A DNA stretch of 64,000 nucleotides from contig JAFLRX010000008.1 in assembly GCA_022511265.1 (NCBI GenBank), positions 6,620 through 70,619 of the forward strand, written 5' to 3'. The translations under genes were made by a program, and so were the position numbers. The stretch comes from Eubacterium sp. Lineage in GTDB: Bacteria > Bacillota > Clostridia > Oscillospirales > Ruminococcaceae. The notes beneath the pieces were generated by a model that was given only the letters and a program-made list of their open reading frames with translations, was not told the origin of the DNA and searched no databases. Positions 15,952 to 61,346 of this stretch are shown here, in pieces; the stretch's first letter is position 1; each line of letters opens with the position of its first letter.

Positions 15952-16010
15952 TTTTGCCTCCCTATATACAAAGACGTAATTCGCCCCGAAATATTACAGC
16001 TTTTTTACAG

Positions 16011-19548: not shown

Positions 19549-19755
19549 TCAGAATGTCATAGATTTGTCGGGTAGGATGCATGCCATGACGATATACGCG
19601 ATAAGCGCGGGAATAAACGCAAAAGAAACGCCAAGCAGCACGGCTATCAGCCGTATTATGTTAGGGTCAAGATTAAGGTACTCTCCGATACCGCCGCACA
19701 CCCCGCAGAACACCCTTCCCTGCTCTATCTTATATAGCTTTTTGGGCATGGTCAA
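19549..19755 (-). CDS. PspC domain protein
   Basis: KKLYKIEQGRVFCGVCGGIGEYLNLDPNIIRL...YIVMACILP. Confidence 0.9.
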   Translation of the reverse strand: MTMPKKLYKIEQGRVFCGVCGGIGEYLNLDPNIIRLIAVLLGVSFAFIPALIAYIVMACILPDKSMTF

Positions 19756-20624
19756 GCCTCCTTTTGCTGCATTGTTATTCTCACTTCGCCTATACCTGAG
19801 GACACACGGAAGGTGTATTTACCGCCGCTGTTTGCGCCGGGGGTGGTCACCTGTCCGATGCCGTTGTCGGTCTTGAAATCATAATCGTCGCGGTCGCCGT
19901 ACAGGGTCATGTATACCGCGCCTATTCCGCTGTCTATTTTGCCGTCGCCGTTGACTTCTCCCGTGAATGTCAGCTGACCTACGCCTATATCCGCGTCGAT
20001 ACCGCCGCATACCGCGTCTCTGACGGATATCGCGCCTACTCCGCCGTCTATGTCCAGCTTGTTATTGGCGATGACATTATTCATTATCATCTCGCCCGCT
20101 CCATTTTTGATGGAGAGTTTTTCGGCGGTTATCCCGTCAACGGTCATTTTGCCCGCGCCGTTTTGTATGTCGGCATTTTCAAACACCATATCCCGCGGCA
20201 ATGTTATCGTGATTTTGGTATCAGGCCAAAATCCTCCTATAAATGATATTTGCCAGCCGCGGTCGTACTTTACGGTCAGGGTGTCACCATTTACCTCATA
20301 CTTAAAGCGGTCTTGAATGACGTTTGTTGTCTCTATCTTTACTCGGTCCACGTCGCCCGTTTTGATTATCATTTCGCCGTAATCAAAGTCTACCTTAAGG
20401 TTTTTTATATCCTCATCCATTATGCTGTCCTCCGAATCAGTGTAATTGCCGTCTCCGGCATGTATACCGTTCCAGTCGATGTAAATGTCGTTGTTGATGA
20501 AATTAAGGTGCAGCCCGTTGCTTAACACAGACGGACCTCCTATACAAAAGGCGACAACCATAAACATTATGCCCAACGTCACCATCGAGCCGCCTACTAT
20601 GTACTTTATTGCTCCTTTCGGCAT
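19752..20624 (-). CDS. DUF4097-type beta-strand repeat protein (LiaG-like)
   Basis: N-terminal TM, repeated GxGxG turns (NGAG, GGVG, GIG). Confidence 0.8.
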   Translation of the reverse strand: MPKGAIKYIVGGSMVTLGIMFMVVAFCIGGPSVLSNGLHLNFINNDIYIDWNGIHAGDGNYTDSEDSIMDEDIKNLKVDFDYGEMIIKTGDVDRVKIETTNVIQDRFKYEVNGDTLTVKYDRGWQISFIGGFWPDTKITITLPRDMVFENADIQNGAGKMTVDGITAEKLSIKNGAGEMIMNNVIANNKLDIDGGVGAISVRDAVCGGIDADIGVGQLTFTGEVNGDGKIDSGIGAVYMTLYGDRDDYDFKTDNGIGQVTTPGANSGGKYTFRVSSGIGEVRITMQQKEA

Positions 20625-21269
20625 TCAGGCCACCCCCTTTCTTCCGGTCAGTTTTCTGAACAGTGCCGCTATTCCGCTGCAGCAGACCTTTGTCAGCTTT
20701 ACCAGCAGCTTGCACAGCGGGTATATCGCCAACGGAAACAACCCCGCAAAGAACAAAGCGATACCGAACGAGAACAGCCCCGCGACAGGCGCGCCGGTGA
20801 AGAATGCGCCTATGCTTATCCCCAGTGCCGATATTGCGCAGGCACCGAACGCGATTATTATTCCGATAAGCGCGGCAAACAGCCCGAACAATATGCCGAA
20901 CACCGCCGCCACCAGCCCTATCCATATCGGGAAGGAAAGAATAAGCAGTATTACTATCAACGCTATCTGTCCGCCTGACCAGCCGGTGTTCTGCTGTGCG
21001 GGGGTGGGCGGCGGGGTAAAGCTGTTGCCGTCAAAACCGCTTGCGTCGGCATGCGCCGTGTCAGCGGCTTGCCCCGCGTCTTTATTTTCGTTGATAATAG
21101 ACTTAGCAAGCTCTTCGGGCGAGCCGAGGCTGGCTATGACAGCCTGCTCGTTTTCTTCGCCCGCCTCGCTGAAAAATTCCTCATAATAGCTCATGGCGGC
21201 CTCGCGCTCTTCCTGCGGGACGGAGGAAAGCGCGTTTCGCAGCTGAGCCAAAAATTCATATTTATTCAT
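20625..21269 (-). CDS. DUF1700 (HAAS) membrane protein
   Basis: MNKYEFLAQLRNAL...MSYYEEFF...LGSPEELAKSI, C-terminal TM helices. Confidence 0.9.
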   Translation of the reverse strand: MNKYEFLAQLRNALSSVPQEEREAAMSYYEEFFSEAGEENEQAVIASLGSPEELAKSIINENKDAGQAADTAHADASGFDGNSFTPPPTPAQQNTGWSGGQIALIVILLILSFPIWIGLVAAVFGILFGLFAALIGIIIAFGACAISALGISIGAFFTGAPVAGLFSFGIALFFAGLFPLAIYPLCKLLVKLTKVCCSGIAALFRKLTGRKGVA

Positions 21270-23328: not shown

Positions 23329-24663
23329 TTATTCTTTACTCTCGGCTTGTGATGAGGTCTTATCGCTTTCAGACGGCTTTTCGTAATTCAACGCATCGTA
23401 ATTATACTCATACGCGACTTCGTCCATCCACTGGGCGATGGTCTTATCCTTTAATTCCGCCTGTCTTTCGGCAATCATACCCTGCTCGGTCGCTTTACGC
23501 ACATCTTCCATCTGCTCGTCGGTTATCTCCGCATCGGAAACGTACTGAATGATATAATAGCCTCTGTCGGTGGCTATCAGGTCGGTAATATCGCCCGGCT
23601 TTTCCAGCGCGTACGCGGCGTCATATATCTCTTTCATGGTCCTTTCAGAGCCGTATATCAACAGGGTGAGATTTTTCTCCGCGCCCTCGTAATAATTCGC
23701 AGCGTATTCCTTCATCACATCTTCAAAGCTTGCCTCGCCGCTGTTCAGCTTTTCCATTGCGGCGTCCGCTTGCCCCTTTACGGTGGCAAGCATTTCATCA
23801 CGCAGCTTGTCCAGCGCGTCGTTGTCCGCGTTGCTCTCTGCCCTTGCCGCCGACAGCTCTGCCGCGTCGGAAGAATCTATCGCAAGCAAAATAAACTTTA
23901 TATTTCTCGAGCCGTCGGGTATCCATACCGCCTGATAATCGGTGGCCGCCTCATAGGTAGCGACAGACTCGTTATACATTGCCTCCGCCTCTTTTTGGGT
24001 GGTGTCAATGTATGTGTCTATAGCCTCTTTGCTAACCGTCACATCTTCGGTTATTTTATCCATCATTTTGCTGTAGATGTAGGTGTTGGTCTGCCACTTC
24101 AGGAATATCTCCTCGCTGAGACCGAACTTAACTATATAATCTAGGAACAGCTCGCGTTCTTTCGCCAGCAGTGCGTCTTTGTCGGCATCGCTTCCCAGTG
24201 CCTCTTTCGCCTCGGCGGCAAACGCGGTATAGTATGCCTGCATATTGTTTTCGTAATACTCGCTTACCTCTTCCGCCTCTTCAGCGGTCAGAACATCCAG
24301 TCCCGCCTCCTGCGCCTTTTTAAGCACAACGCGCTCTTCCGCAAGCATTTCTATCATCTGCTGACGGTACAGCTGTAGGTCGGTCTGATAGTCCTCCTCG
24401 TACTCGTCTATCTGGTTCATATCAATGAAAAACGCATACTCGGAATAAAACTCCTTAAACGCTATATTGTAAAATTCCTTTTCCTCGTCAGAAAGCGTTT
24501 CGCTGCCCGACCACGCCACTATATCGTCGTCGTTTGCCGTCCATATCTCGGCGGGCTTGCTTTCGCCGGAGGTATCGGAGGAAGTAAGTATGCTGTCGCT
24601 GCATCCCGTTATACCCATAGCGCAGACCAGCAGCAGTGCCGCCGCAGTTGTAATTTTCTTCAT
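23329..24663 (-). CDS. SurA/PrsA-like foldase lipoprotein (rotamase domain, degenerate)
   Basis: Lipobox ITGC after MKKITT start; ADAAMEKLNSGEASFEDVMKEYA, PGDITDLIATDRGYYII. Confidence 0.7.
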   Translation of the reverse strand: MKKITTAAALLLVCAMGITGCSDSILTSSDTSGESKPAEIWTANDDDIVAWSGSETLSDEEKEFYNIAFKEFYSEYAFFIDMNQIDEYEEDYQTDLQLYRQQMIEMLAEERVVLKKAQEAGLDVLTAEEAEEVSEYYENNMQAYYTAFAAEAKEALGSDADKDALLAKERELFLDYIVKFGLSEEIFLKWQTNTYIYSKMMDKITEDVTVSKEAIDTYIDTTQKEAEAMYNESVATYEAATDYQAVWIPDGSRNIKFILLAIDSSDAAELSAARAESNADNDALDKLRDEMLATVKGQADAAMEKLNSGEASFEDVMKEYAANYYEGAEKNLTLLIYGSERTMKEIYDAAYALEKPGDITDLIATDRGYYIIQYVSDAEITDEQMEDVRKATEQGMIAERQAELKDKTIAQWMDEVAYEYNYDALNYEKPSESDKTSSQAESKE

Positions 24664-24811
24664 AATATTTTCCTTCCTGTCCCGTACGGGACAATAATCA
24701 TGCCGAGTAAATAAAACAATCAACCTATTAAGTATACCATATTTTTCGCCAAAGTCAAACCCTAAATCACAAAAACAGATGAATTTTAGGTGAAATTTTT
24801 ACGGCTTTTCC

Positions 24812-26335: not shown

Positions 26336-26455
26336 ATCTTCTCTCCTTTGGAACAAAATTATGGTAATATTATAACATATTATGGCGAGAAATGCAAATA
26401 AAACAAAAACACAGCGGACGTCATAAGACGTCCGCCGCGTTTTTACAGGGGGTAG

Positions 26456-28888
26456 TTATGATAATTTCAAGGAAGTAGCATGAGCGAATATTCCGCTGTA
26501 CGAGCTGTTTTCGTTATTGTTGAAATCCAGCATGTCAACGGTTATTGTTGCCTTTCGGGTGTCTTCCTTTGACAGGCTGTCAAAGTCAGGTATGCTGTCC
26601 GCGTTTATGTATACAAGCGAATATCCTGATTTTGCCCAGACCCCGCTATTCTCCGGCTTTAGTTCGTATCCGCCGAAGCTATCTGACAACCCAAGGGGAA
26701 TATAAGGCAGAGATTGCTTAAATCCTTTGGGGTCAACACACATCACATAACAATCGTACCCACGGTCATATCCCAGCAAGCCGGTCAGCGTCATGCTGCC
26801 CTCTAACGTAAACTTATTATATCCGCCTTTCATATTAAAGCTTGGATTGCTTCCTGTACTGAGATAAAGTCCCGCGCCGGCCTCGGTAACAGTCATATCT
26901 CCTACCTTATCGCCCACCTTCAGCGTCGTCATTTCATAGTTTTCGCCGGTATTTCCGGGAAATACCGTATCGTTGCCGCCATTGCTGTCAGGGTCGTATT
27001 CGTTATAATACAACTCGTTATCGGTAACCTCTCTTACAATTGCATAGTCATATATAAACTTTGAATTGCTTATCTCCGTATCTGTAGGCAGTTCATATCC
27101 CATAAAGGTGGCTTTTTCAGGCAGTCCGTTCTTTGGCTCTGCTTTAAGCCGTACGCTGTCAAACGAAGTAACAGGCGCACTTACCCAAGCCTTGTAATTA
27201 GTGCCGTAAGCGTAGTCGAGCTGTCCAACGGTCACCTCTACCTCGTACAAGCCAGCTTTTTCAAAACCCGCCGCTTCCATAAAACCGTATTCACCTCTCA
27301 ACTCTACAATCGGGAAACAGGACGCGGCATAATAATCATACTTGCCGTCAGCAGGTGTAGAAAGCGTATATGTTCTGTAGTAATAGGGCGCCGGAACATA
27401 AGGCAGCAATTCATCAAATCCTGACGGGTCGACGCAAAGCTGTACATATGATGAAAGCGGGTCATACTCCATTATGCCCTTTAGTGTTATCTCTCCATAA
27501 AGCGCATAGTAGATCTGCTCGTCAGTGAAATAATACTCAATACCTCCGCTAAGTTTTGTTCTGGTATCCAGCTTCATCTGCATAGAGCCTTCTATCACCG
27601 TAAGACCGCCTATCATATCTCCCGACTTTAAGGTAAGATAGTCTTTGCTGCCCGAGATGTTCTCCGGTGTCGGGAGAACATCATCCGCCGTCTCTGAGGC
27701 TTTGTATAAAAGCTCGCTTTTGTCAAGCTTCCTTAGTATCGCGTAATCGTACGGGTAGTATGAACCTACGTCTCCACCTTCGATAGGCAACGACATATTG
27801 CAGTAGGTTACCGTCATGGGCACATCCGCCTTTACGTCGAACCAGTCTACCGATGATATATCCGCGCTGGCGCCGCTTAACCCGCCGCTTTCGTTATAGC
27901 CTATGGTTATGCTCCTTGCGGAGAGACCTACCTCATACAGCCCGCCGAATCTTACATACTCATCAGCAAACACATTACCGTCAACATGTATGAACATATA
28001 GCCGGAGTCCGCGCTGAAATTAAAGTCAGCGTCAACGTCAGTGGGTACATGGCTGCTGCCGGAATCTTCAAATTCCGCAGGGATATACGGCAGCAGTTCG
28101 CCAAAGTTGGCAGGGTCAACGCACAATATGCTGTCGGTGCCGTTATATTCCAGTATGCCGCTCAGCGTGATTTCGCCCTCCATCGTGAACGAATTATAGC
28201 CTAGTTCTTTTGGGAGAAAATACGCCTCGCCGTTTTCATCAAATTTTATACTGTAGCGTGAGGACGCTTTTGATACCGTGAGACCTCCGACCTCGTCTCC
28301 GACATGCAGCTTTATACATTCGCCTATCTTGCTGTCAGCGTCATTTACGTCAGTCGGGATGGTCTGCACACCGTCGGTGGTGTGATAATACAGTCTGCTG
28401 GGGTCGTATCTTTTTACTATCGCAAAATCGTAATAGCAAAAATCCATATTACCCTCTTTTTTATACGCGCCCGCCGTGGGCAGCTCCAGCCCGTTGTATT
28501 CTATAAACGCGGGTATCTGTCTGACCACGCTTTCCGTGCTGCTGTTCGAGCTGTTATCAATGCTGCTTTCATAGCTGCTGTCAGTCCACGGGTTCAATAT
28601 ATTGTTATCGTACAGCATATTCACCAGCAGCACTCCGCCCGCCGCCAGCAGGCAAAAGCTTGCCGCCACCGCTATCCATTTCGCGGCGGAAAATTTCAGT
28701 TTTACAGGCTCTTTTTCGATAAACTCCTCCGCGTCGGTTATCTTCCCGCGCTCGGCAGAGCGTATCAGCTTTTTCATTTTCTTTTCAAATGCCGGGGAGA
28801 ACTCATGCTGCTCGTCTGCGCCGGGGAATGCGTCCATGCGCTCGCGATAAGTTTCCTCCAATGCTTTTTTCAGTTCATCGTTGTACAT
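26456..28888 (-). CDS. putative anti-sigma factor with three tandem copies of an unrecognised extracellular domain
   Basis: N-terminal HEFSPAFEKKMKKLIR, TM KWIAVAASFCLLAAGGVLLV, three ~230-aa repeats; directly after the ECF sigma gene, AGGAGG RBS. Confidence 0.8.
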   Translation of the reverse strand: MYNDELKKALEETYRERMDAFPGADEQHEFSPAFEKKMKKLIRSAERGKITDAEEFIEKEPVKLKFSAAKWIAVAASFCLLAAGGVLLVNMLYDNNILNPWTDSSYESSIDNSSNSSTESVVRQIPAFIEYNGLELPTAGAYKKEGNMDFCYYDFAIVKRYDPSRLYYHTTDGVQTIPTDVNDADSKIGECIKLHVGDEVGGLTVSKASSRYSIKFDENGEAYFLPKELGYNSFTMEGEITLSGILEYNGTDSILCVDPANFGELLPYIPAEFEDSGSSHVPTDVDADFNFSADSGYMFIHVDGNVFADEYVRFGGLYEVGLSARSITIGYNESGGLSGASADISSVDWFDVKADVPMTVTYCNMSLPIEGGDVGSYYPYDYAILRKLDKSELLYKASETADDVLPTPENISGSKDYLTLKSGDMIGGLTVIEGSMQMKLDTRTKLSGGIEYYFTDEQIYYALYGEITLKGIMEYDPLSSYVQLCVDPSGFDELLPYVPAPYYYRTYTLSTPADGKYDYYAASCFPIVELRGEYGFMEAAGFEKAGLYEVEVTVGQLDYAYGTNYKAWVSAPVTSFDSVRLKAEPKNGLPEKATFMGYELPTDTEISNSKFIYDYAIVREVTDNELYYNEYDPDSNGGNDTVFPGNTGENYEMTTLKVGDKVGDMTVTEAGAGLYLSTGSNPSFNMKGGYNKFTLEGSMTLTGLLGYDRGYDCYVMCVDPKGFKQSLPYIPLGLSDSFGGYELKPENSGVWAKSGYSLVYINADSIPDFDSLSKEDTRKATITVDMLDFNNNENSSYSGIFAHATSLKLS

Positions 28889-28900
28889 AAGTTCCACCTC

Positions 28901-29455
28901 CTACTTAGCAAACTCGCTGTCCACAAGTATATTCAGCAGCCTGCGGCGCGCCCTGAACAGCCGTTGGCGCACCGTGCCCGCGCTCTCGCCGGTTAGCTTG
29001 GCAATATCCGTCGGTGTCTTTTCCATAAACGCCGTCATAAATATCAGCTCGTAGTCCGCATCGTCCAGCTTGCGCAGTGCCGCCTTTATCCGCTCTGCAC
29101 CGTACATGGATATCACTTCATTCTCAACATCGTCGGTGCTTTGTATATCGTACATTTCGTCTATGCTCTCCTCGGCAACATTTTTGGCTTTATTCTTTTT
29201 GTACATAGTCAGCGCGGTGTTCTTTGCGGCCGTACAGAGATAATATCCGCACACCTCCAAGCTGAAGCCGGACAGCCTCGGCATATTGCCGAACGCCTTC
29301 ATAAACGCGTCCTGTACCGCGTCCTCCGCGTCCTCGTTGTTTTTAAGGATGCCCAGCGCTATGCCGTACATCCTGCCGCGGTATGTAAGATACAGCTCTT
29401 CCGCCAGGCTCTTTTCCTCAGGCGTGTCAGCCATAGCCATACATAATGCAAGCAT
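28901..29455 (-). CDS. ECF RNA polymerase sigma factor
   Basis: ILKNNEDAEDAVQDAFMKA, YLCTAAKNTAL, LRKLDDADYELI, GTVRQRLFRARRRL; GAGGGG RBS. Confidence 0.93.
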   Translation of the reverse strand: MLALCMAMADTPEEKSLAEELYLTYRGRMYGIALGILKNNEDAEDAVQDAFMKAFGNMPRLSGFSLEVCGYYLCTAAKNTALTMYKKNKAKNVAEESIDEMYDIQSTDDVENEVISMYGAERIKAALRKLDDADYELIFMTAFMEKTPTDIAKLTGESAGTVRQRLFRARRRLLNILVDSEFAK

Positions 29456-29488
29456 ATTACTCCCCCTCACAGTGTTTGTCATTGTTAT

Positions 29489-29517
29489 ATTGTAACTCAT
29501 TATTATTCCCCAGTCAA
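29489..29517 (-). promoter_or_regulatory. sigma-A promoter of the ECF sigma gene
   Basis: TTGACT-17 nt-TACAAT. Confidence 0.7.
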
Positions 29518-29531
29518 TAGCTCCGAAGCTT

Positions 29532-30452
29532 TTATACCAAATCAACAGCTACCGCATGCGCCGATATACCGTCAAACGCGCCGCTGCGGTCATAGCTGAA
29601 CAAGATACCGTCAACCGTTATCTCGACCTCATACAGCCCATCGTCCGTTATACTGCTTATATCAGCGTCGGCAAGCCCGCCCCTGCCGAAATGTATCGGC
29701 GGATAGGAGGTCATCACCTTTACGTCATACTCTGTCTCTTCGCTGACCGATACGCCCACCTCCGCGGGGAGATACGGCAGCTTGTCTCCAAAGCCCTCAG
29801 GGTCTGCCCACAGGATGCCGTACCCGTCGATGTATTCCAGCATGCCCTTCAGCGTCAGCTCGCCCTCCAGCCTGAATTTATTATATTCGGAATTTTTACG
29901 GGCAAAGCCCGCCGTGCCTTTATCGTTATAGTACTGTATGCTGTACCGTGAGAGCGCCTCGGTCACGGTAAGCCCGCCGACCTTATCACCAACCCTCAGC
30001 ACGCTGTAATTATAATCACCCTTACAGCTTTCCTCCGGATAGGCAAGATACCCATCCTCGTCGAAGTTTTCGGGCGAACGCTTTGAATTGTCATACAAAA
30101 GATAATTCGCGTCTATCCTTTTGACTATGGCGTAATCGTAACAGCAAAACTCTGCGGCGCCCTCTTTTTTGTATGATCCCTCGGTCGGCAGAGACAGGTT
30201 GCCGTACTGTATCGTCTCGGGCAGACGGTTTATTTCTTCCTCGCTCTCCGACACAGTCACTTCTGTGGTCTCATCTTTACTTTCAGGTTGTACGGCGATG
30301 GTTATATCCTTTTTCGGTGTTTCTTCCGTTGAGGATATCACACCCGCGCTTTCGGTATCGTCGGCGGGTATGCCGACATGCGCCGTGTTTTCACATGCAG
30401 ATACTGCAAATATCGCTGCTAAGATAATTAACGGTATGATTGCTCTTTTCAT
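29532..30452 (-). CDS. lipoprotein with one copy of the same domain as the anti-sigma factor
   Basis: Lipobox VSAC; YDYAIVKR, LRVGDKVGGLTV, LEGELTLKG, DPEGFGDKLPYLP, GLYEV. Confidence 0.8.
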   Translation of the reverse strand: MKRAIIPLIILAAIFAVSACENTAHVGIPADDTESAGVISSTEETPKKDITIAVQPESKDETTEVTVSESEEEINRLPETIQYGNLSLPTEGSYKKEGAAEFCCYDYAIVKRIDANYLLYDNSKRSPENFDEDGYLAYPEESCKGDYNYSVLRVGDKVGGLTVTEALSRYSIQYYNDKGTAGFARKNSEYNKFRLEGELTLKGMLEYIDGYGILWADPEGFGDKLPYLPAEVGVSVSEETEYDVKVMTSYPPIHFGRGGLADADISSITDDGLYEVEITVDGILFSYDRSGAFDGISAHAVAVDLV

Positions 30453-30760
30453 TGCTTTTTCCTTTCAGTCGTGAAGCTAATATATTAAAAAACAGCGCTG
30501 TTTTGTTGTCGGCCTTTTGACCGCCTTCATAATATAAGACACCAAAATACACCTCTGCGTTACGGGTAATTTTTATTTTTGTGAAAAATGTCAAAAAATC
30601 CGTAGCTGAATTGTTATACATATACAACCTTAAATTGCAATAGTAATTACAAAATATAATAATAATACTATAATTCAATCTTGACTATCGCGGCAAATTG
30701 TGGTATACTGAACTTATCTATTTTACGGCTGATGCCGTACATACGGAAAGGAAGATCACT

Positions 30761-33008: not shown

Positions 33009-34970
33009 TTATTTAATTTCAGCTTTTACTCCGGGTACAGAATTCAGCTTGCCTTTGCCCTTACACGTCCAGCATTTGCCGTCGCCGTGGCAGCCCTGGC
33101 AGGTGACATTTGCCCATTTGCCGCTGCCGCCGCATACTGTGCAGCGTCCCGTGCCGCCGCAGGTATGGCAGAACGCCACCTCGCTGCCGGTGAACGGGGT
33201 CAGGTATACCGAGAACAGACCTTCCCACTTGCTGTAATAATCGCCGTACCAGGTCGATATATACGGTGTCTCCAGTCTGAAATAGAATAAGCTGGGGGTT
33301 TTGCCGGTATAATCCACGTACTGCGCCCTCATATAACACTCTTTAAAGTATTGGGGGTGGGAGGTGGTATTGTAGGTCTGCTGTCCGTTGCCGTGCCATA
33401 TACCTACAAGGTCTGCTGTGATGATAGGAGCGTACGCGCCCAACGGGCTGGTCTCACTGCCGGTGGCGATGCCGCCTGCGGCAAAGCCGAATCTGAGATA
33501 ATCGCGCTTGTTCAGCCATACCTTTATCTCATCGGTCCAGTGGATAGAGTCGTCTCTTATATCCGTCACATAATATCTTCTATAGGTAACGTCAAAGTTA
33601 ATGCCGTCAGCACCCGTCGCAAACTCTCCTGTACCCTGATATTCGGTGCTTGCCTTGCCCGGATCAGGTGTCCTGAAGTAGGACGCGCCGTGCCAGCCTT
33701 CCTTTGCGGTGGGGTCTTTTAGTGTAGACAAAGTAATGGTGGCAGAGCCGCCCTTCACCTTGGTGCTGCCCTGCATTATATAGGGCGTGATGCGGAATTG
33801 CGCAGTCGTACCTGAAGGCATATTGATGGTCAGCGGGGGCTTGGTCACTACCACTGTCGAAGAGGTAAGCATTACCCACTTGCCGTTATAATATTCCTCA
33901 ACATCATAGCCGGAGACAGTGGAATTATGGTTCCATGTAATGGTCACACCGTCATAAGATACATCCGTGGCCTTCAGCCCGGTAACCGCCGCGGGGGTGG
34001 TACACCATGTGTTGCTTGCTAATATGCTGTACAATGCAGTGCTGCCGGACATCTTATATGCCTGGATGCGGAAGCTGTACTCAGTGCCGGGCTTCAGTCC
34101 ACCGACACGGTACTCAGTGGTAGAATTATTGGTTATCTTGACAACGCGTTGCCATGCGGTGCCGACCTTTTGCTCGATTATATATCCGTCGGCAGAGGTG
34201 TTCTTGTTCCAGCCCAGACGCAATGCGTCGGTCGCCCTGCCCTTTAAGGTAAAGCCCTGTACCCCGTTGGGGGATGTGCGCCAGCTGCCGTTGGTATAAC
34301 CGCTGTACAACGCGGTGCTGCCAGACATCTTATACGCCCTTATGCGGAAGTTGTAGGCGGTGCCCGCCGCAAGCCCTGTCACCTTATATTCGGTGGTAGC
34401 GTTGTTGGTTATCTTGGTGATGCGCTGCCATGTTGAGCCAACCTTTTTCTCAATAATATATCCGTCGGCAGAGGTGTTCTTCGCCCAACTGAGAGTAAGA
34501 TAATTATTCGACCTCAATTTAAGGGCAAAACTCTTCATCGCGCTGGGATAAGTGCGCCAGCTGCCGCTGGAATAGCTGCTGTACAGCGCGGTACTGCCGG
34601 ACATCTTATATGCCTTGACACGGAAACTATATGCCGTACCCGCCTTTAGTCCCGCAATGCGGTACTCTGTGGTGGCATTGCTTGTTATCTTTGCGATACG
34701 CTTCCAGGTGGTGCCGTCCTTCTGCTCGACGATATATCCGTCGGCGGAGGTGTTCTTGTTCCACGCGATACGCAGTGCGTCAGCGGCGCGCCCCTTAAGA
34801 TAAAGTCCTGTTATCTTAGAGGGTGCCGACGCGGATTTTTCCTGCGAAAGCACTTCTTCCTGCGCCTGCTGCAATGCGCTGCCCTGATAAATGTTCTGTA
34901 CCGCGGCGCATGACGTGAACAGCATAACTGCTGCCATCAGCAGGGAGATAAGCGATAATCTTTTTTTCAT
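33009..34970 (-). CDS. lipoprotein with four fibronectin type III repeats and a C-terminal DnaJ-type Zn finger
   Basis: Lipobox FTSC; W..NTSADGY..E...W...GL..GT.Y.FR..AY repeats; four CxxCxGxG motifs at the C-terminus. Confidence 0.85.
   Translation of the reverse strand: MKKRLSLISLLMAAVMLFTSCAAVQNIYQGSALQQAQEEVLSQEKSASAPSKITGLYLKGRAADALRIAWNKNTSADGYIVEQKDGTTWKRIAKITSNATTEYRIAGLKAGTAYSFRVKAYKMSGSTALYSSYSSGSWRTYPSAMKSFALKLRSNNYLTLSWAKNTSADGYIIEKKVGSTWQRITKITNNATTEYKVTGLAAGTAYNFRIRAYKMSGSTALYSGYTNGSWRTSPNGVQGFTLKGRATDALRLGWNKNTSADGYIIEQKVGTAWQRVVKITNNSTTEYRVGGLKPGTEYSFRIQAYKMSGSTALYSILASNTWCTTPAAVTGLKATDVSYDGVTITWNHNSTVSGYDVEEYYNGKWVMLTSSTVVVTKPPLTINMPSGTTAQFRITPYIMQGSTKVKGGSATITLSTLKDPTAKEGWHGASYFRTPDPGKASTEYQGTGEFATGADGINFDVTYRRYYVTDIRDDSIHWTDEIKVWLNKRDYLRFGFAAGGIATGSETSPLGAYAPIITADLVGIWHGNGQQTYNTTSHPQYFKECYMRAQYVDYTGKTPSLFYFRLETPYISTWYGDYYSKWEGLFSVYLTPFTGSEVAFCHTCGGTGRCTVCGGSGKWANVTCQGCHGDGKCWTCKGKGKLNSVPGVKAEIK
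33990..34815 (-). repeat. intragenic 276-bp tandem repeat (Fn3 units)
   Basis: GGC(A/G)GAGGTGTTCTT anchor at 34191, 34467 and 34743 (period 276 nt = 92 aa). Confidence 0.9.
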
Positions 34971-58562: not shown

Positions 58563-61346
58563 TCAGTACCTTCTCAGCTTCTGCACAGCCACCATAACAG
58601 CCGCTGCCGCAAGATTGTATATTGTCAGCACGGTAGGCGTCAGCAGGAAGGTCTGCTTGAATGCCGTCATCAACAGCACCAGCACAACGCCGAGCGCCGC
58701 GCATGCCGTCATTATCGCACCGGATATCGAGAATACCCTCATCAGCGACTTTGCGGTCAGTATGCCGCGCGCGAGCGAGGTAAATGTACCTCCGCAGGAC
58801 AGCCCTCCGCTGCCGCGCGAGGTGTACTTAGTACATTCGTCATACTCCTCATGCGCGCCGTGCGGCAATATCTTTATCAGCTCGGGGTCTAACTCGAACA
58901 TATCCGCCAGCTTTTCAACGGTCACTATAGAGTCGGTGGTGCGTACGATTATTGCTACATTTTCCTTCTGCAATGCCTGTAGGCTGCTCTTTATCTCGTG
59001 GTTGGCGGTCATGCATATAATGAACATCGCCACTACTTCTCCGCCCACCGCGAGATATACTACCTCGTCACTATCCGCCGCGCAATGCTTGCGCTCGGAC
59101 TTTGTAGAGGGCAGCTCGATATGGTGGGTGGTCATCAGCGCCCTGCCGCCGAACATCACACGCCGTGTGCCTATCCAACCGGTGACGCCGCTGTTGTCCT
59201 CATAAATGCAGCCGTCCACCTTTTTCAGCAGCTCTTTATCGCCCAGCGTCACGTCATAGAACGCGTAGGACAGTATTCCGTCGGTGTGTATCGCAAGGCT
59301 TGCCGCCATTACTATTGCCTCGTCTATGTTGACGGAGGTAACGGCGTTCTTCCTCTGGCATATCTTTACGCTGCGTATTACCGCGCTGCCCGCGGGGAAC
59401 AGCGTCTTAGCGTCGGTCATAACGGTATTTACCGCGGAAAACTCGCTTGCCGCCTCATATCCCAGCAGTGCCGCGTTGTTTTTGGACAGCTGCTTTGAGG
59501 TCGCGCTTAGCGGGCGGTTTATCATCAGCATTACTGAATACGGCGCGGCTATCGTCGCCGCCGCTATACCTGCCGAAAGTGCCCAAAACAGCGGATTTTC
59601 GCTCGCAACAGAAACATCAAATTCCGCGCCGAACAGGTTGAAGTAACCAATCAGTCCCGCGATAAGACCCGCCGCCAGCGAGCCTATTACCAGCTTGCCG
59701 GACAGTCTGTCCGCCGCGTCGTCGCAATAGCTGGATTTAAGAAAATCAGTGAGAAATTCAGTCTTTCTCATTACCGCCAGCACCGGCACACGATCGGTAA
59801 GCCCCTTTGTAAACATGGACACCGACGCGTCGTTTTCCACACGCTGGGCGTAATATTTCTGACTGTCGCCGGAGATAAAGCGGAAGTTGCGCTTTGCCCG
59901 GACTATCATATATATCTTTCCTGCGGTGTTGAACATCAGTGCCACCAACGCCGCGGAAATGTAAATGAACATATGCCCTATCCGGAATGACTGCATATCC
60001 ACCAGCGCAGCCACGCCGCCAATCAGCGACAGCACCGCGGTAAACGCGCAGACCGAGTCGCAGTCAGGCTTTCCGGTTATCAGCTTCAGCATACCGTTGC
60101 TCAGCGCGGTAGAGCATACCGCAAAGCCCAGCACGCCCAGCACCAGATGGACATACAGCAGGCTCTCGACGTCCGTCATGCGATTGACGAAATTCAGCGC
60201 GTCCAGCCCCAGTGTACCGAACAGGTTAAAGTCGTTCAGCATCGCCACGATAACGCTCAGCGCGGTGATTATCACCAGCAGCGTCATCCTGACCTTCAGT
60301 CCCTTATGGCTGGCACACAGGTCAGCCCATATCTGCCCGGTGCTGTCAAAATCGTCGAACTCGTCCTCGTTATCCTGTGCGTTATCCTCTTGCTCCGTGC
60401 CGGATTCGTCCTCCAGCACAAAGTCCTTTATCTTGTGCTTTTTCTCCGCGCCCAGCTCTGCCAGCCGTTCTTCCTCCACTACGGGGTTTTCTTTCGGCAG
60501 TGCGCCGGTCGCCTCTATTATCTGCTTTTTATAATCAATGTTCAGCGGATGCGCCACCGCCGACGGCTTGTTCTTTATATTTGTCAGCGTGATCGTGCGG
60601 TGCGCCCTGATGTCGGATTTGCGCTTTTCCTCCATCGACTTGTTCAGCTTGTCGATAAGTGAGGTGTTAGGCGGCTTTTTCGCTACGTATTCCTTTACCT
60701 CTTCGCTCTCGTTTATCTTCTCCGCTATCTTGGTGGACGACGGGGGCAGCTGCTTTATCTGCTCTGCCTTGACGTCCTGCGTGTTGCCGCGGAACATATG
60801 GCTGACGTCCTCGGCGGGGAATACCTCTTCTTCCTCTGCCGACGACTCGGCAAATACCTTTTCCTTTACCTCTATCGGGTTGACAAGGTCCAGCATCGCG
60901 TCGGGGTCGCTGTTTTCTCTCTCTTTTTCCAGCAGCAGCTCGCGCTTTTGCTCTTCCTCCTGCTGCTTTCTCAGCACCTCGGTCTGAGAGGGCTCGGGCT
61001 TGGGTGCCGGTTTCGGCTCGGGCTTGGGCTCAGGCTTTGGTTCCGGCTTAGGCTCGGGCTTGGGCGGCTCGTCCTCTTCGTCGTCGACGGTGGTTATCAG
61101 CTCGCTCTCGGCGGCGGATATCGCAAACTTCTCGGTACCCGCCAGCACCGACTCTACCGCATAGCTTTTGTTTTCGGGGGCGGCAGGCTCGTCCGGATTA
61201 TCCTCACGCTTCGCCTCGATATCGTTCAGTACGTCGGTATACGACAGGTCGGGGACAGACTTCCCCGCGTCTGACGGTGTATCGGCGTCGCGGGATTTTT
61301 TCGCGTCCAGCTCCGCCAGTATATCATCTATCGAATAATCTGCCAT
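58563..61346 (-). CDS. membrane protein with acidic disordered N-terminus and degenerate P1B-type ATPase-like core
   Basis: Several TM helices; VNTVMTDAKTLFP at the DKTGT position; GRALM; VYLAVGGEVVAMF; IVRTTDS at the TGDN position. Confidence 0.7.
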   Translation of the reverse strand: MADYSIDDILAELDAKKSRDADTPSDAGKSVPDLSYTDVLNDIEAKREDNPDEPAAPENKSYAVESVLAGTEKFAISAAESELITTVDDEEDEPPKPEPKPEPKPEPKPEPKPAPKPEPSQTEVLRKQQEEEQKRELLLEKERENSDPDAMLDLVNPIEVKEKVFAESSAEEEEVFPAEDVSHMFRGNTQDVKAEQIKQLPPSSTKIAEKINESEEVKEYVAKKPPNTSLIDKLNKSMEEKRKSDIRAHRTITLTNIKNKPSAVAHPLNIDYKKQIIEATGALPKENPVVEEERLAELGAEKKHKIKDFVLEDESGTEQEDNAQDNEDEFDDFDSTGQIWADLCASHKGLKVRMTLLVIITALSVIVAMLNDFNLFGTLGLDALNFVNRMTDVESLLYVHLVLGVLGFAVCSTALSNGMLKLITGKPDCDSVCAFTAVLSLIGGVAALVDMQSFRIGHMFIYISAALVALMFNTAGKIYMIVRAKRNFRFISGDSQKYYAQRVENDASVSMFTKGLTDRVPVLAVMRKTEFLTDFLKSSYCDDAADRLSGKLVIGSLAAGLIAGLIGYFNLFGAEFDVSVASENPLFWALSAGIAAATIAAPYSVMLMINRPLSATSKQLSKNNAALLGYEAASEFSAVNTVMTDAKTLFPAGSAVIRSVKICQRKNAVTSVNIDEAIVMAASLAIHTDGILSYAFYDVTLGDKELLKKVDGCIYEDNSGVTGWIGTRRVMFGGRALMTTHHIELPSTKSERKHCAADSDEVVYLAVGGEVVAMFIICMTANHEIKSSLQALQKENVAIIVRTTDSIVTVEKLADMFELDPELIKILPHGAHEEYDECTKYTSRGSGGLSCGGTFTSLARGILTAKSLMRVFSISGAIMTACAALGVVLVLLMTAFKQTFLLTPTVLTIYNLAAAAVMVAVQKLRRY

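Follow-up and report, generated by a model that had tools for sequence, protein, structure and literature searches.

The stretch of DNA analysed here (64,000 nucleotides, referred to as the window) comes from Eubacterium sp. (GenBank assembly GCA_022511265.1, contig JAFLRX010000008.1, positions 6,620 to 70,619) and contains three adjacent genes, for a lipoprotein, a sigma factor of the extracytoplasmic function (ECF) type and a single-pass membrane protein. The lipoprotein carries one copy, and the membrane protein three copies, of a ~230-aa domain that apparently represents a new fold. On balance, we consider it somewhat probable that the membrane protein is an anti-sigma sensor with a new ectodomain, placed in an ECF module whose sigma factor induces a paralogous lipoprotein that modulates the signal. 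Few bacterial signalling families are as large as the ECF sigma/anti-sigma pairs, most of which, especially in uncultured gut Clostridia, are without an assigned signal or sensor fold. The locus defines a compact, confidently foldable ectodomain family without a named or solved relative, recruited by at least two sigma/anti-sigma types and repeatedly paired with a lipoprotein paralogue. It provides a concrete case of a sensor and a putatively induced envelope protein sharing one domain, together with a candidate promoter. The general reach of these findings is limited, as members of this very rare family come only from Oscillospirales-like bacteria of animal guts.

A lipoprotein gene beside an ECF sigma/membrane protein pair

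The first-pass annotation of the window had described a trio of lipoprotein, ECF sigma and membrane protein genes. Three open reading frames (ORFs) running in the same direction were indeed found on the minus strand, located between a divergent phosphoglucomutase gene and a ComM/YifB-type gene. The lipoprotein gene (29532-30452) is followed by the sigma gene (28901-29455) and by the gene for the 810-aa single-pass membrane protein (26456-28888), after which there is a strong terminator. Independent gene calls on an identical Logan contig gave proteins of 306, 184 and 810 aa. On the basis of these calls, ATG 29455 and ATG 28888 are the likely starts of the sigma and the membrane protein, for which the ORF list gave earlier TTG and GTG starts. 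ATG 28888 lies 12 nt past the sigma stop, behind an AGGAGG site, and no terminator follows the sigma gene until 26446. The features of the three genes are as follows.

29532..30452, minus: lipoprotein gene, 306 aa (ORF and independent gene call)
30393-30452, minus: lipoprotein signal peptide with lipobox VSA/C (Cys20; inspection)
30258-30392, minus: acidic, Ser/Thr-rich linker of the lipoprotein (sequence)
29535-30257, minus: single domain copy of the lipoprotein (homology to the membrane-protein copies)
28901..29455, minus: ECF sigma gene, 184 aa, ribosome-binding site GGGGGAG (Pfam, NCBIfam)
28679..28888, minus: putative anti-sigma cytoplasmic N-terminus, ~70 aa, with the motif H-E-F-S-P-x-F-E-x-K-M (sequence)
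28616..28678, minus: single transmembrane helix WIAVAASFCLLAAGGVLLVNM, in which one AA and one GG are invariant (sequence and orthologue alignment)
28550..28615, minus: Ser/Asn-rich juxtamembrane linker, poorly conserved at 27-40% identity (orthologue comparison)
27839..28549, minus: domain copy D1, nearest relative of the lipoprotein copy at ~40% identity (BLASTP, alignment, tree)
27158..27838, minus: domain copy D2 (BLASTP, alignment)
26459..27157, minus: domain copy D3, 40-42% identical to its orthologue, the last copy in P0002 and P0003 (BLASTP, alignment, tree)
26403..26446, minus: intrinsic terminator, a 20-bp stem followed by a T-run, 10 nt past the anti-sigma stop (sequence)

The N-terminus of the lipoprotein reads MKRAIIPLIILAAIFAVSA followed by C, which by inspection fits the lipobox pattern [LVI][ASTVI][GAS]C. 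The related L-x-[GA]-C is also present in the homologues P0007, P0010, P0013 and P0014-17, and in the lipoproteins of loci L005 and L009. In the membrane protein, a Lys-rich segment precedes the transmembrane helix and the sequence that follows it is acidic or neutral, so that an N-in topology is likely.

Two sister species possess loci syntenic with the window (L010, from ENA, and L014, from GCA_947624435.1), in the order L31, phosphoglucomutase, sigma, anti-sigma, ComM, PrsA-like, radical SAM and QueT. The anti-sigmas of both sister species contain two domain copies, compared with three in the window.

Four copies of a domain without named or solved relatives

When compared by BLASTP, lipoprotein residues 70-304 align with membrane-protein residues 121-351, 359-564 and 581-812 (numbered from the GTG start, 813 aa), with E values of 7e-42, 1.5e-24 and 2.5e-24, in agreement with the one plus three copies counted in the first-pass annotation. 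Pairwise identity among the four copies is 29-42%, and 31 columns are invariant. Similarity of this degree far exceeds chance, and the four copies are clearly homologous. The motifs previously listed as shared were essentially right, including a GLYEV found in three of the four copies, with two corrections: D1 reads YDFAIVK rather than YDYAIVK, and the Cys that is conserved two residues before DP (C-V-D-P) is absent from the lipoprotein, which has W-A-D-P instead.

A tree of the copies shows the last one to be orthologous between species, making D3 the copy with clear orthologues, and places the lipoprotein copy with D1. Given that they group at only ~40% identity, the duplication that links lipoprotein and D1 is old. 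As both sister-species proteins hold two copies, one membrane-proximal copy is extra in the window lineage. Within a distant subfamily, the family alignment contains two nearly invariant Cys, in C-x-G-F-x-Y and x-C-V-P; in the window, D1 has both, D2 and D3 the second only and the lipoprotein the first only. This partial retention suggests an optional disulfide.

As the first-pass annotation had anticipated in recognising no named family, neither the lipoprotein nor the membrane protein is matched by Pfam (models to 2025) or NCBIfam (2026). There was no recurrent weak Pfam match among 21 domain copies, and domain profiles had no match among PDB sequences (best E 0.19). An exhaustive HMMER search of 1.84 billion cluster representatives yielded 13 hits at E up to 0.001. 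Two of these, P0004 and P0008, were rejected as repeat-protein artefacts, each summing many sub-threshold repeat matches of 3-7 bits, which leaves ~11 true clusters. With the hits of other searches added, the family comprises ~15 clusters, all unnamed. Word-indexed protein searches using four-copy, 21-copy and full-length orthologue profiles returned almost nothing besides the query. A scan of GTDB genomes with close-family patterns gave no match, a weak negative as these patterns would miss even the orthologues P0002 and P0018. The family is tiny, and is known from metagenomes and metagenome-assembled genomes (MAGs) of animal guts only.

AlphaFold2 confidently predicts an almost all-beta structure both for the lipoprotein domain (pLDDT 89.2, pTM 0.86) and for a distant family member (pLDDT 88.4, pTM 0.87). 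Foldseek searches of PDB and BFVD with the two models found no match with E up to 0.001; the lowest E values were 0.036 and 0.058, and TM-scores normalised to the query did not exceed 0.23. Hits of the second model to OB-folds (SSB; E 0.06-0.3, TM 0.4-0.48 when normalised to the small target) were set aside, since the first model did not reproduce them. Neither Foldseek nor the PDB-sequence profile search related the domain to a known CBM, Ig-like or FN3 family. Judged from these models, the ~230-aa domain is apparently a new fold, new meaning that it has no solved relative, as opposed to no predicted relative, with PDB and BFVD as the libraries covered. Only two Gly, one Asp, one Thr and one Ala are nearly invariant across the family. 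Because the near-invariant residues are confined to these types, the domain is likely to have a binding or a structural/scaffolding role rather than to be an enzyme.

The sigma factor and its putative anti-sigma

By its domain matches, the sigma is a clear ECF (group 4) sigma-70 factor, as previously proposed. Pfam identifies Sigma70_r2 (residues 21-89) and Sigma70_r4_2 (residues 121-173), the TIGR02937 model scores 80.3 bits against a cut-off of 42.9 (E 1.2e-22), and the protein matches the solved ECF sigmas SigH, SigW, SigE and SigL.

The HEFSPAFEKKM segment and the single hydrophobic helix reported in the first-pass annotation are both present in the membrane protein. A class I anti-sigma domain (ASD, zf-HC2/RskA type) is not recognisable in its N-terminus. 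Across three orthologues, this cytoplasmic N-terminus is the best-conserved part of the membrane protein, with 61-68% identity, similar to the 58-66% of the sigma, as opposed to 28-50% for the ectodomains. The cytoplasmic end thus tracks the sigma while the outside evolves fast. Neighbouring housekeeping proteins of the sister species are 88-92% identical to those of the window. We infer that the membrane protein is the anti-sigma of the adjoining ECF sigma. The AA and GG pairs in its membrane helix fit site-2 protease substrates and Clp-type degradation, as established for RseA and RsiW.

Recurrence of the domain beside ECF sigma genes

Recurrence of the homologues beside ECF genes had been put forward as a check on the module, and this is what was found. 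Every membrane-anchored homologue with visible upstream DNA comes after an ECF sigma gene (the window, L010-13, L014-15, L006, L020, L021, L002 and L003). These sigmas are of more than one kind. A second type (type B, 185-205 aa, ~26% identical to the window sigma, which is taken as type A) occurs at L006 (a Ruminococcus MAG), L020, L021, L002 and L003. In the type-B partners, the N-terminus is of another kind and very short (MxEKDLFNAINEIDxKYI), and the domain is present in one to three copies. At least two unrelated cytoplasmic N-termini, each paired with a sigma type of its own, bear the same ectodomain. A third sigma type is found at L005, where a domain lipoprotein is followed by the sigma and then by a distinct single-pass protein, the ectodomain of which is cut by the contig end.

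Domain lipoproteins adjoin ECF sigma/membrane-protein pairs in four lineages (the window and, as three further cases, L002/L003, L005 and L018/L019), with differing gene orders. At L018, the 157-aa membrane partner is without the domain, and the lipoprotein gene lies 18 nt downstream. Stand-alone lipoprotein forms occur at L007-L009 (rabbit-gut Clostridia, between ilvC and prmA) and at L017. An ECF sigma invariably accompanies the membrane form, while the lipoprotein form is tied to one in about half of the lineages, so that its tie is not obligatory. Even so, the linkage of lipoprotein and sigma would be far above that expected of a random gene.

Two further observations concern these loci. 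Ahead of the L002/L003 lipoprotein gene is a 394-nt gap with a pair of ~100-nt direct repeats and, immediately upstream of the start codon, a terminator-like hairpin (L002:2600-2850, L003:2640-2890). Type-A and type-B loci alike contain, at a distance of one to three genes from the sigma/anti-sigma pair, a gene for a PrsA-like peptidyl-prolyl isomerase lipoprotein (window 23329-24723, minus strand; L006:4287-5537; L020:384-1712; L021:78-1328). These proteins are ~29% identical over their full length, and their proximity could be an old shared neighbourhood or a coincidence.

Candidate promoters

Two promoters had been noted in the first-pass annotation, an ECF candidate upstream of the lipoprotein gene and a sigma-A promoter before the sigma gene, and each finds a counterpart in the sister species.

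30535..30563, minus: candidate ECF-type promoter, -35 GTAAC (30563-30559), 18-nt spacer, -10-like GTCTTA (30540-30535), preceded by an A-rich tract
30453..30534, minus: 5' leader of the lipoprotein gene; includes a conserved small hairpin at 30510-30523 and, as ribosome-binding site, AAGGA
29489..29517, minus: sigma-A-like promoter TTGACT-17-TACAAT, 10/12 consensus, in the 77-nt lipoprotein-sigma gap

The ECF-type candidate sits upstream of the lipoprotein gene in the window, and its core GTAACG-N14-18-GTCTTA occurs once in the 64 kb (0.03 expected by chance) and once per orthologous locus. It is part of a conserved block that is common to the window and to the phosphoglucomutase-sigma intergenic regions of both sister species, consisting in order of an A-rich tract, GGTAACGC, 15-17 nt, GTCTTA, TTATGAAGGCGG and a small hairpin. 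In L010 and L014, GTAACG-N17/18-GTCTTA is conserved upstream of the sigma operon, 250-300 nt before the sigma. Downstream of the motif, both have a conserved non-coding stretch rich in hairpins, the place of which is taken by the lipoprotein gene in the window. Comparable motifs of the form TGTAAY-N16-18-GT(C/G)T(T)TA are found 25-40 nt ahead of the sigma genes of the two other sigma types: type-B loci have TGTAAT-N16-GTGTCT(T)TA 25-40 nt before their sigma genes, and L005 has TGTAAC-N18-GTGTTATAT before the sigma and GAAAC-N17-GTCTTTA ~310 nt before the lipoprotein. An autoregulated promoter with AAC in the -35 and CGT in the -10 is a hallmark of ECF systems (PMC8103513). A conserved motif with ECF geometry at the position of an autoregulated promoter is good circumstantial evidence for a candidate sigma-dependent promoter. 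A looser pattern gave additional window matches at 15970 and 59663, which were not accepted as regulon members because the number of matches is within chance (3 found, 1.1 expected).

The sigma-A-like promoter is likewise conserved in position, with TTGACA-17-TATCAT and TTGACA-17-TATAAT at the same place before the sigma in L010 and L014, respectively. The first ~60 nt of the lipoprotein leader are conserved with L010 and L014. The leader had no Rfam match, and its folding is no better than that of shuffled sequence (z about 0).

Between the ECF-like and sigma-A-like promoters of the sister species (L010:9260-9400, L014:9300-9400) there is a conserved ~70-nt non-coding block without a window counterpart. 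It contains two hairpins (TATAAACCGC..CGGTTTATATAGCCG.ACACCCTCAGCGGCACGCGGCGG....CCGCCGCGATA) and may act as an attenuator or represent a small RNA that the sigma controls. A 76-aa ORF called on the identical Logan contig (30391-30621, minus strand) spans the promoter and leader and overlaps the lipoprotein start. It is probably spurious, since comparison with L010 and L014 reveals single-base indels that disrupt its frame.

Comparison with known systems

The logic of the module resembles that of SigV/RsiV, SigE/RseA/RseB, SigP/RsiP/PbpP and SigI/RsgI, but the defining sequence and fold features of each are absent. The analogy with SigI/RsgI and SigV/RsiV drawn in the first-pass annotation is valid for the logic only. 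In the SigV/RsiV systems of Bacillus, Clostridioides and Enterococcus, a single-pass anti-sigma has an ectodomain that is the direct receptor, and the sigma is released by regulated intramembrane proteolysis (PMC4183432, PMC5014341). The window likewise pairs an ECF sigma with a single-pass membrane partner, the ectodomain of which is the presumed sensor. Sharing of a sensor domain with another envelope protein has a precedent in the RsiV ectodomain, which PdaC, a membrane deacetylase, also contains. A further likeness to sigV operons is a membrane-anchored polysaccharide deacetylase gene that follows the L002 lipoprotein (L002:4082-5140). Unlike RsiV, however, the window protein contains no DUF4179 or RsiV/PdaC-type domain according to Pfam, and Foldseek found no RsiV-like structure; the window sigma reaches 45.7 bits on the SigV model, against a cut-off of 190. 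A sub-threshold DUF4179 match (E 0.055) was seen only in the unrelated 157-aa partner of L018.

In SigE/RseA/RseB of Proteobacteria, a third extracytoplasmic protein from the sigma operon modulates the anti-sigma from outside (PMC8103513), and a basal promoter is combined with an autoregulated one, as the candidate promoters suggest here. In contrast to the window lipoprotein, a paralogue of the sensor domain, RseB is soluble, LolA-like and unrelated to the RseA periplasmic domain. No LolA-like or DUF4367 signal was found by Pfam in the 21 domain copies, and LolA/RseB structures were not among the Foldseek hits of either model. In SigP/RsiP/PbpP of Bacillus thuringiensis, an ECF anti-sigma has as its co-sensor a separate membrane-anchored extracellular protein (PMC8092216). 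This protein, the penicillin-binding protein PbpP, bears no relation to RsiP, whereas the window partner carries the sensor's own domain. The SigI/RsgI systems of cellulolytic clostridia have modular and variable extracellular sensing domains, some in tandem, and signal by proteolysis (PMC10328401, PMC6852018). The window shares with them a putative membrane anti-sigma of gut or plant-degrading Clostridia, with a modular ectodomain, but its sigma is a canonical two-domain ECF with a canonical region 4 and is not SigI. No RsgI N-terminal domain, CBM or PA14 module was detected in the window proteins or the 21 copies (Pfam, NCBIfam). The module is therefore an ECF module of an ordinary kind, and what is new is the ectodomain family and its recurrent paralogous lipoprotein partner.

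Proposed mechanism and alternatives

In the reading we favour, the N-terminus of the anti-sigma would hold the sigma inactive, while the basal sigma-A promoter directly upstream of the sigma gene would keep the pair present. An extracellular cue acting on the ectodomain would release the sigma, most likely via regulated proteolysis of the anti-sigma, and the free sigma would then fire the conserved GTAACG-N17/18-GTCTTA promoter. In the window genome, this promoter would transcribe the lipoprotein first and read on into the sigma and anti-sigma. As the lipoprotein is first behind the promoter and no terminator lies between the genes, the induced output would include a membrane-tethered fourth copy of the sensor domain. 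The lipoprotein would most likely modulate the signal, be it as a decoy or titrator that competes with the sensor for one ligand or partner, or by docking on the anti-sigma ectodomain; either would add feedback on top of the usual positive autoregulation.

Several observations weigh against this reading. No known anti-sigma domain was detected in the membrane protein (Pfam and NCBIfam, whole protein, E up to 1), and anti-sigma residues 1-95 had no PDB sequence match. While the AAC of the -35 is present, the -10-like element GTCTTA has GTC, not CGT. At L002/L003, the lipoprotein gene is parted from the pair by the terminator-like hairpin and is without a matching promoter motif. At least three lipoprotein lineages adjoin no sigma gene, and no ligand or fold analogy narrows what the ectodomain senses. 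Moreover, neither syntenic sister species has a lipoprotein gene at the locus (~10 kb either side), nor was a remnant of one found in their intergenic regions (tblastn, blastn). With the two closest relatives lacking it and several homologues standing alone, the lipoprotein is not a conserved member of the module. The module is likely to work without it, since both sister species have none at the locus. As judged from the copy tree and synteny, the lipoprotein is a lineage-added accessory from an old duplication related to D1, and not part of the core. The L018 arrangement favours a real partnership of lipoprotein and membrane partner, one that the sister species show to be dispensable.

A different role for the lipoprotein, which we think rather unlikely, is that of a constitutive co-receptor on the anti-sigma ectodomain, shielding it in an RseB-like manner from site-1 cleavage until a ligand displaces the lipoprotein; binding could possibly occur through like-with-like domain contacts. 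The joint recurrence of lipoprotein and pair in four lineages is in line with such a role, as is L018/L019, where the ectodomain of the membrane partner is small and the lipoprotein of the same operon is the sole source of the domain. Against it, the two-copy anti-sigmas of the sister species have no lipoprotein at the locus, and the window lipoprotein gene is placed behind the candidate sigma-dependent promoter rather than the basal one.

We assign a similarly low probability to the lipoprotein being a plain regulon effector (e.g. a surface binding or adhesion protein) that exerts no feedback, the domain being shared because a surface module was duplicated and re-used. What the anti-sigma ectodomain senses would then be something against or toward which the lipoprotein is deployed. 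Lipoprotein homologues do stand alone at unrelated loci (L007-L009, L017), the ectodomains evolve fast, as surface proteins do, and at only ~40% identity to D1 the specificity of the lipoprotein may have diverged. However, independent recurrence beside three sigma types would be hard to explain without functional coupling.

More doubtful still is a stronger form of the favoured reading, namely that a new sensory fold makes like-with-like contacts between the anti-sigma and lipoprotein copies, creating a self-titrating/decoy switch that sigma lineages of gut Clostridia have assembled repeatedly. Such a switch is not known to have been described for any ECF system.

Finally, it is highly improbable that the 810-aa membrane protein is a co-transcribed surface protein, with the sigma controlled otherwise: no anti-sigma domain model matches it and the cytoplasmic segment of type-B partners is only ~40 aa, but every locus found, with N-termini of at least two types, keeps the immediate succession of sigma and single-pass membrane protein, conservation is highest in the cytoplasmic N-terminus, the rate of which varies together with that of the sigma, and co-transcription with the cognate anti-sigma is a listed ECF hallmark (PMC8103513).

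Other genes in the window

Three other minus-strand regions of the window deserve mention. Pfam does not match a 927-aa ORF at 58563-61346 (E up to 1e-5). The region 33009-34970, just past the gene for ribosomal protein L31, encodes 653 aa that include three fibronectin type III repeats. At 19752-21269, a few kb from the sigma locus, a gene for a 214-aa protein with a HAAS domain precedes one for a 290-aa DUF4097 'toastrack' protein, and the two products constitute another putative membrane sensing pair.

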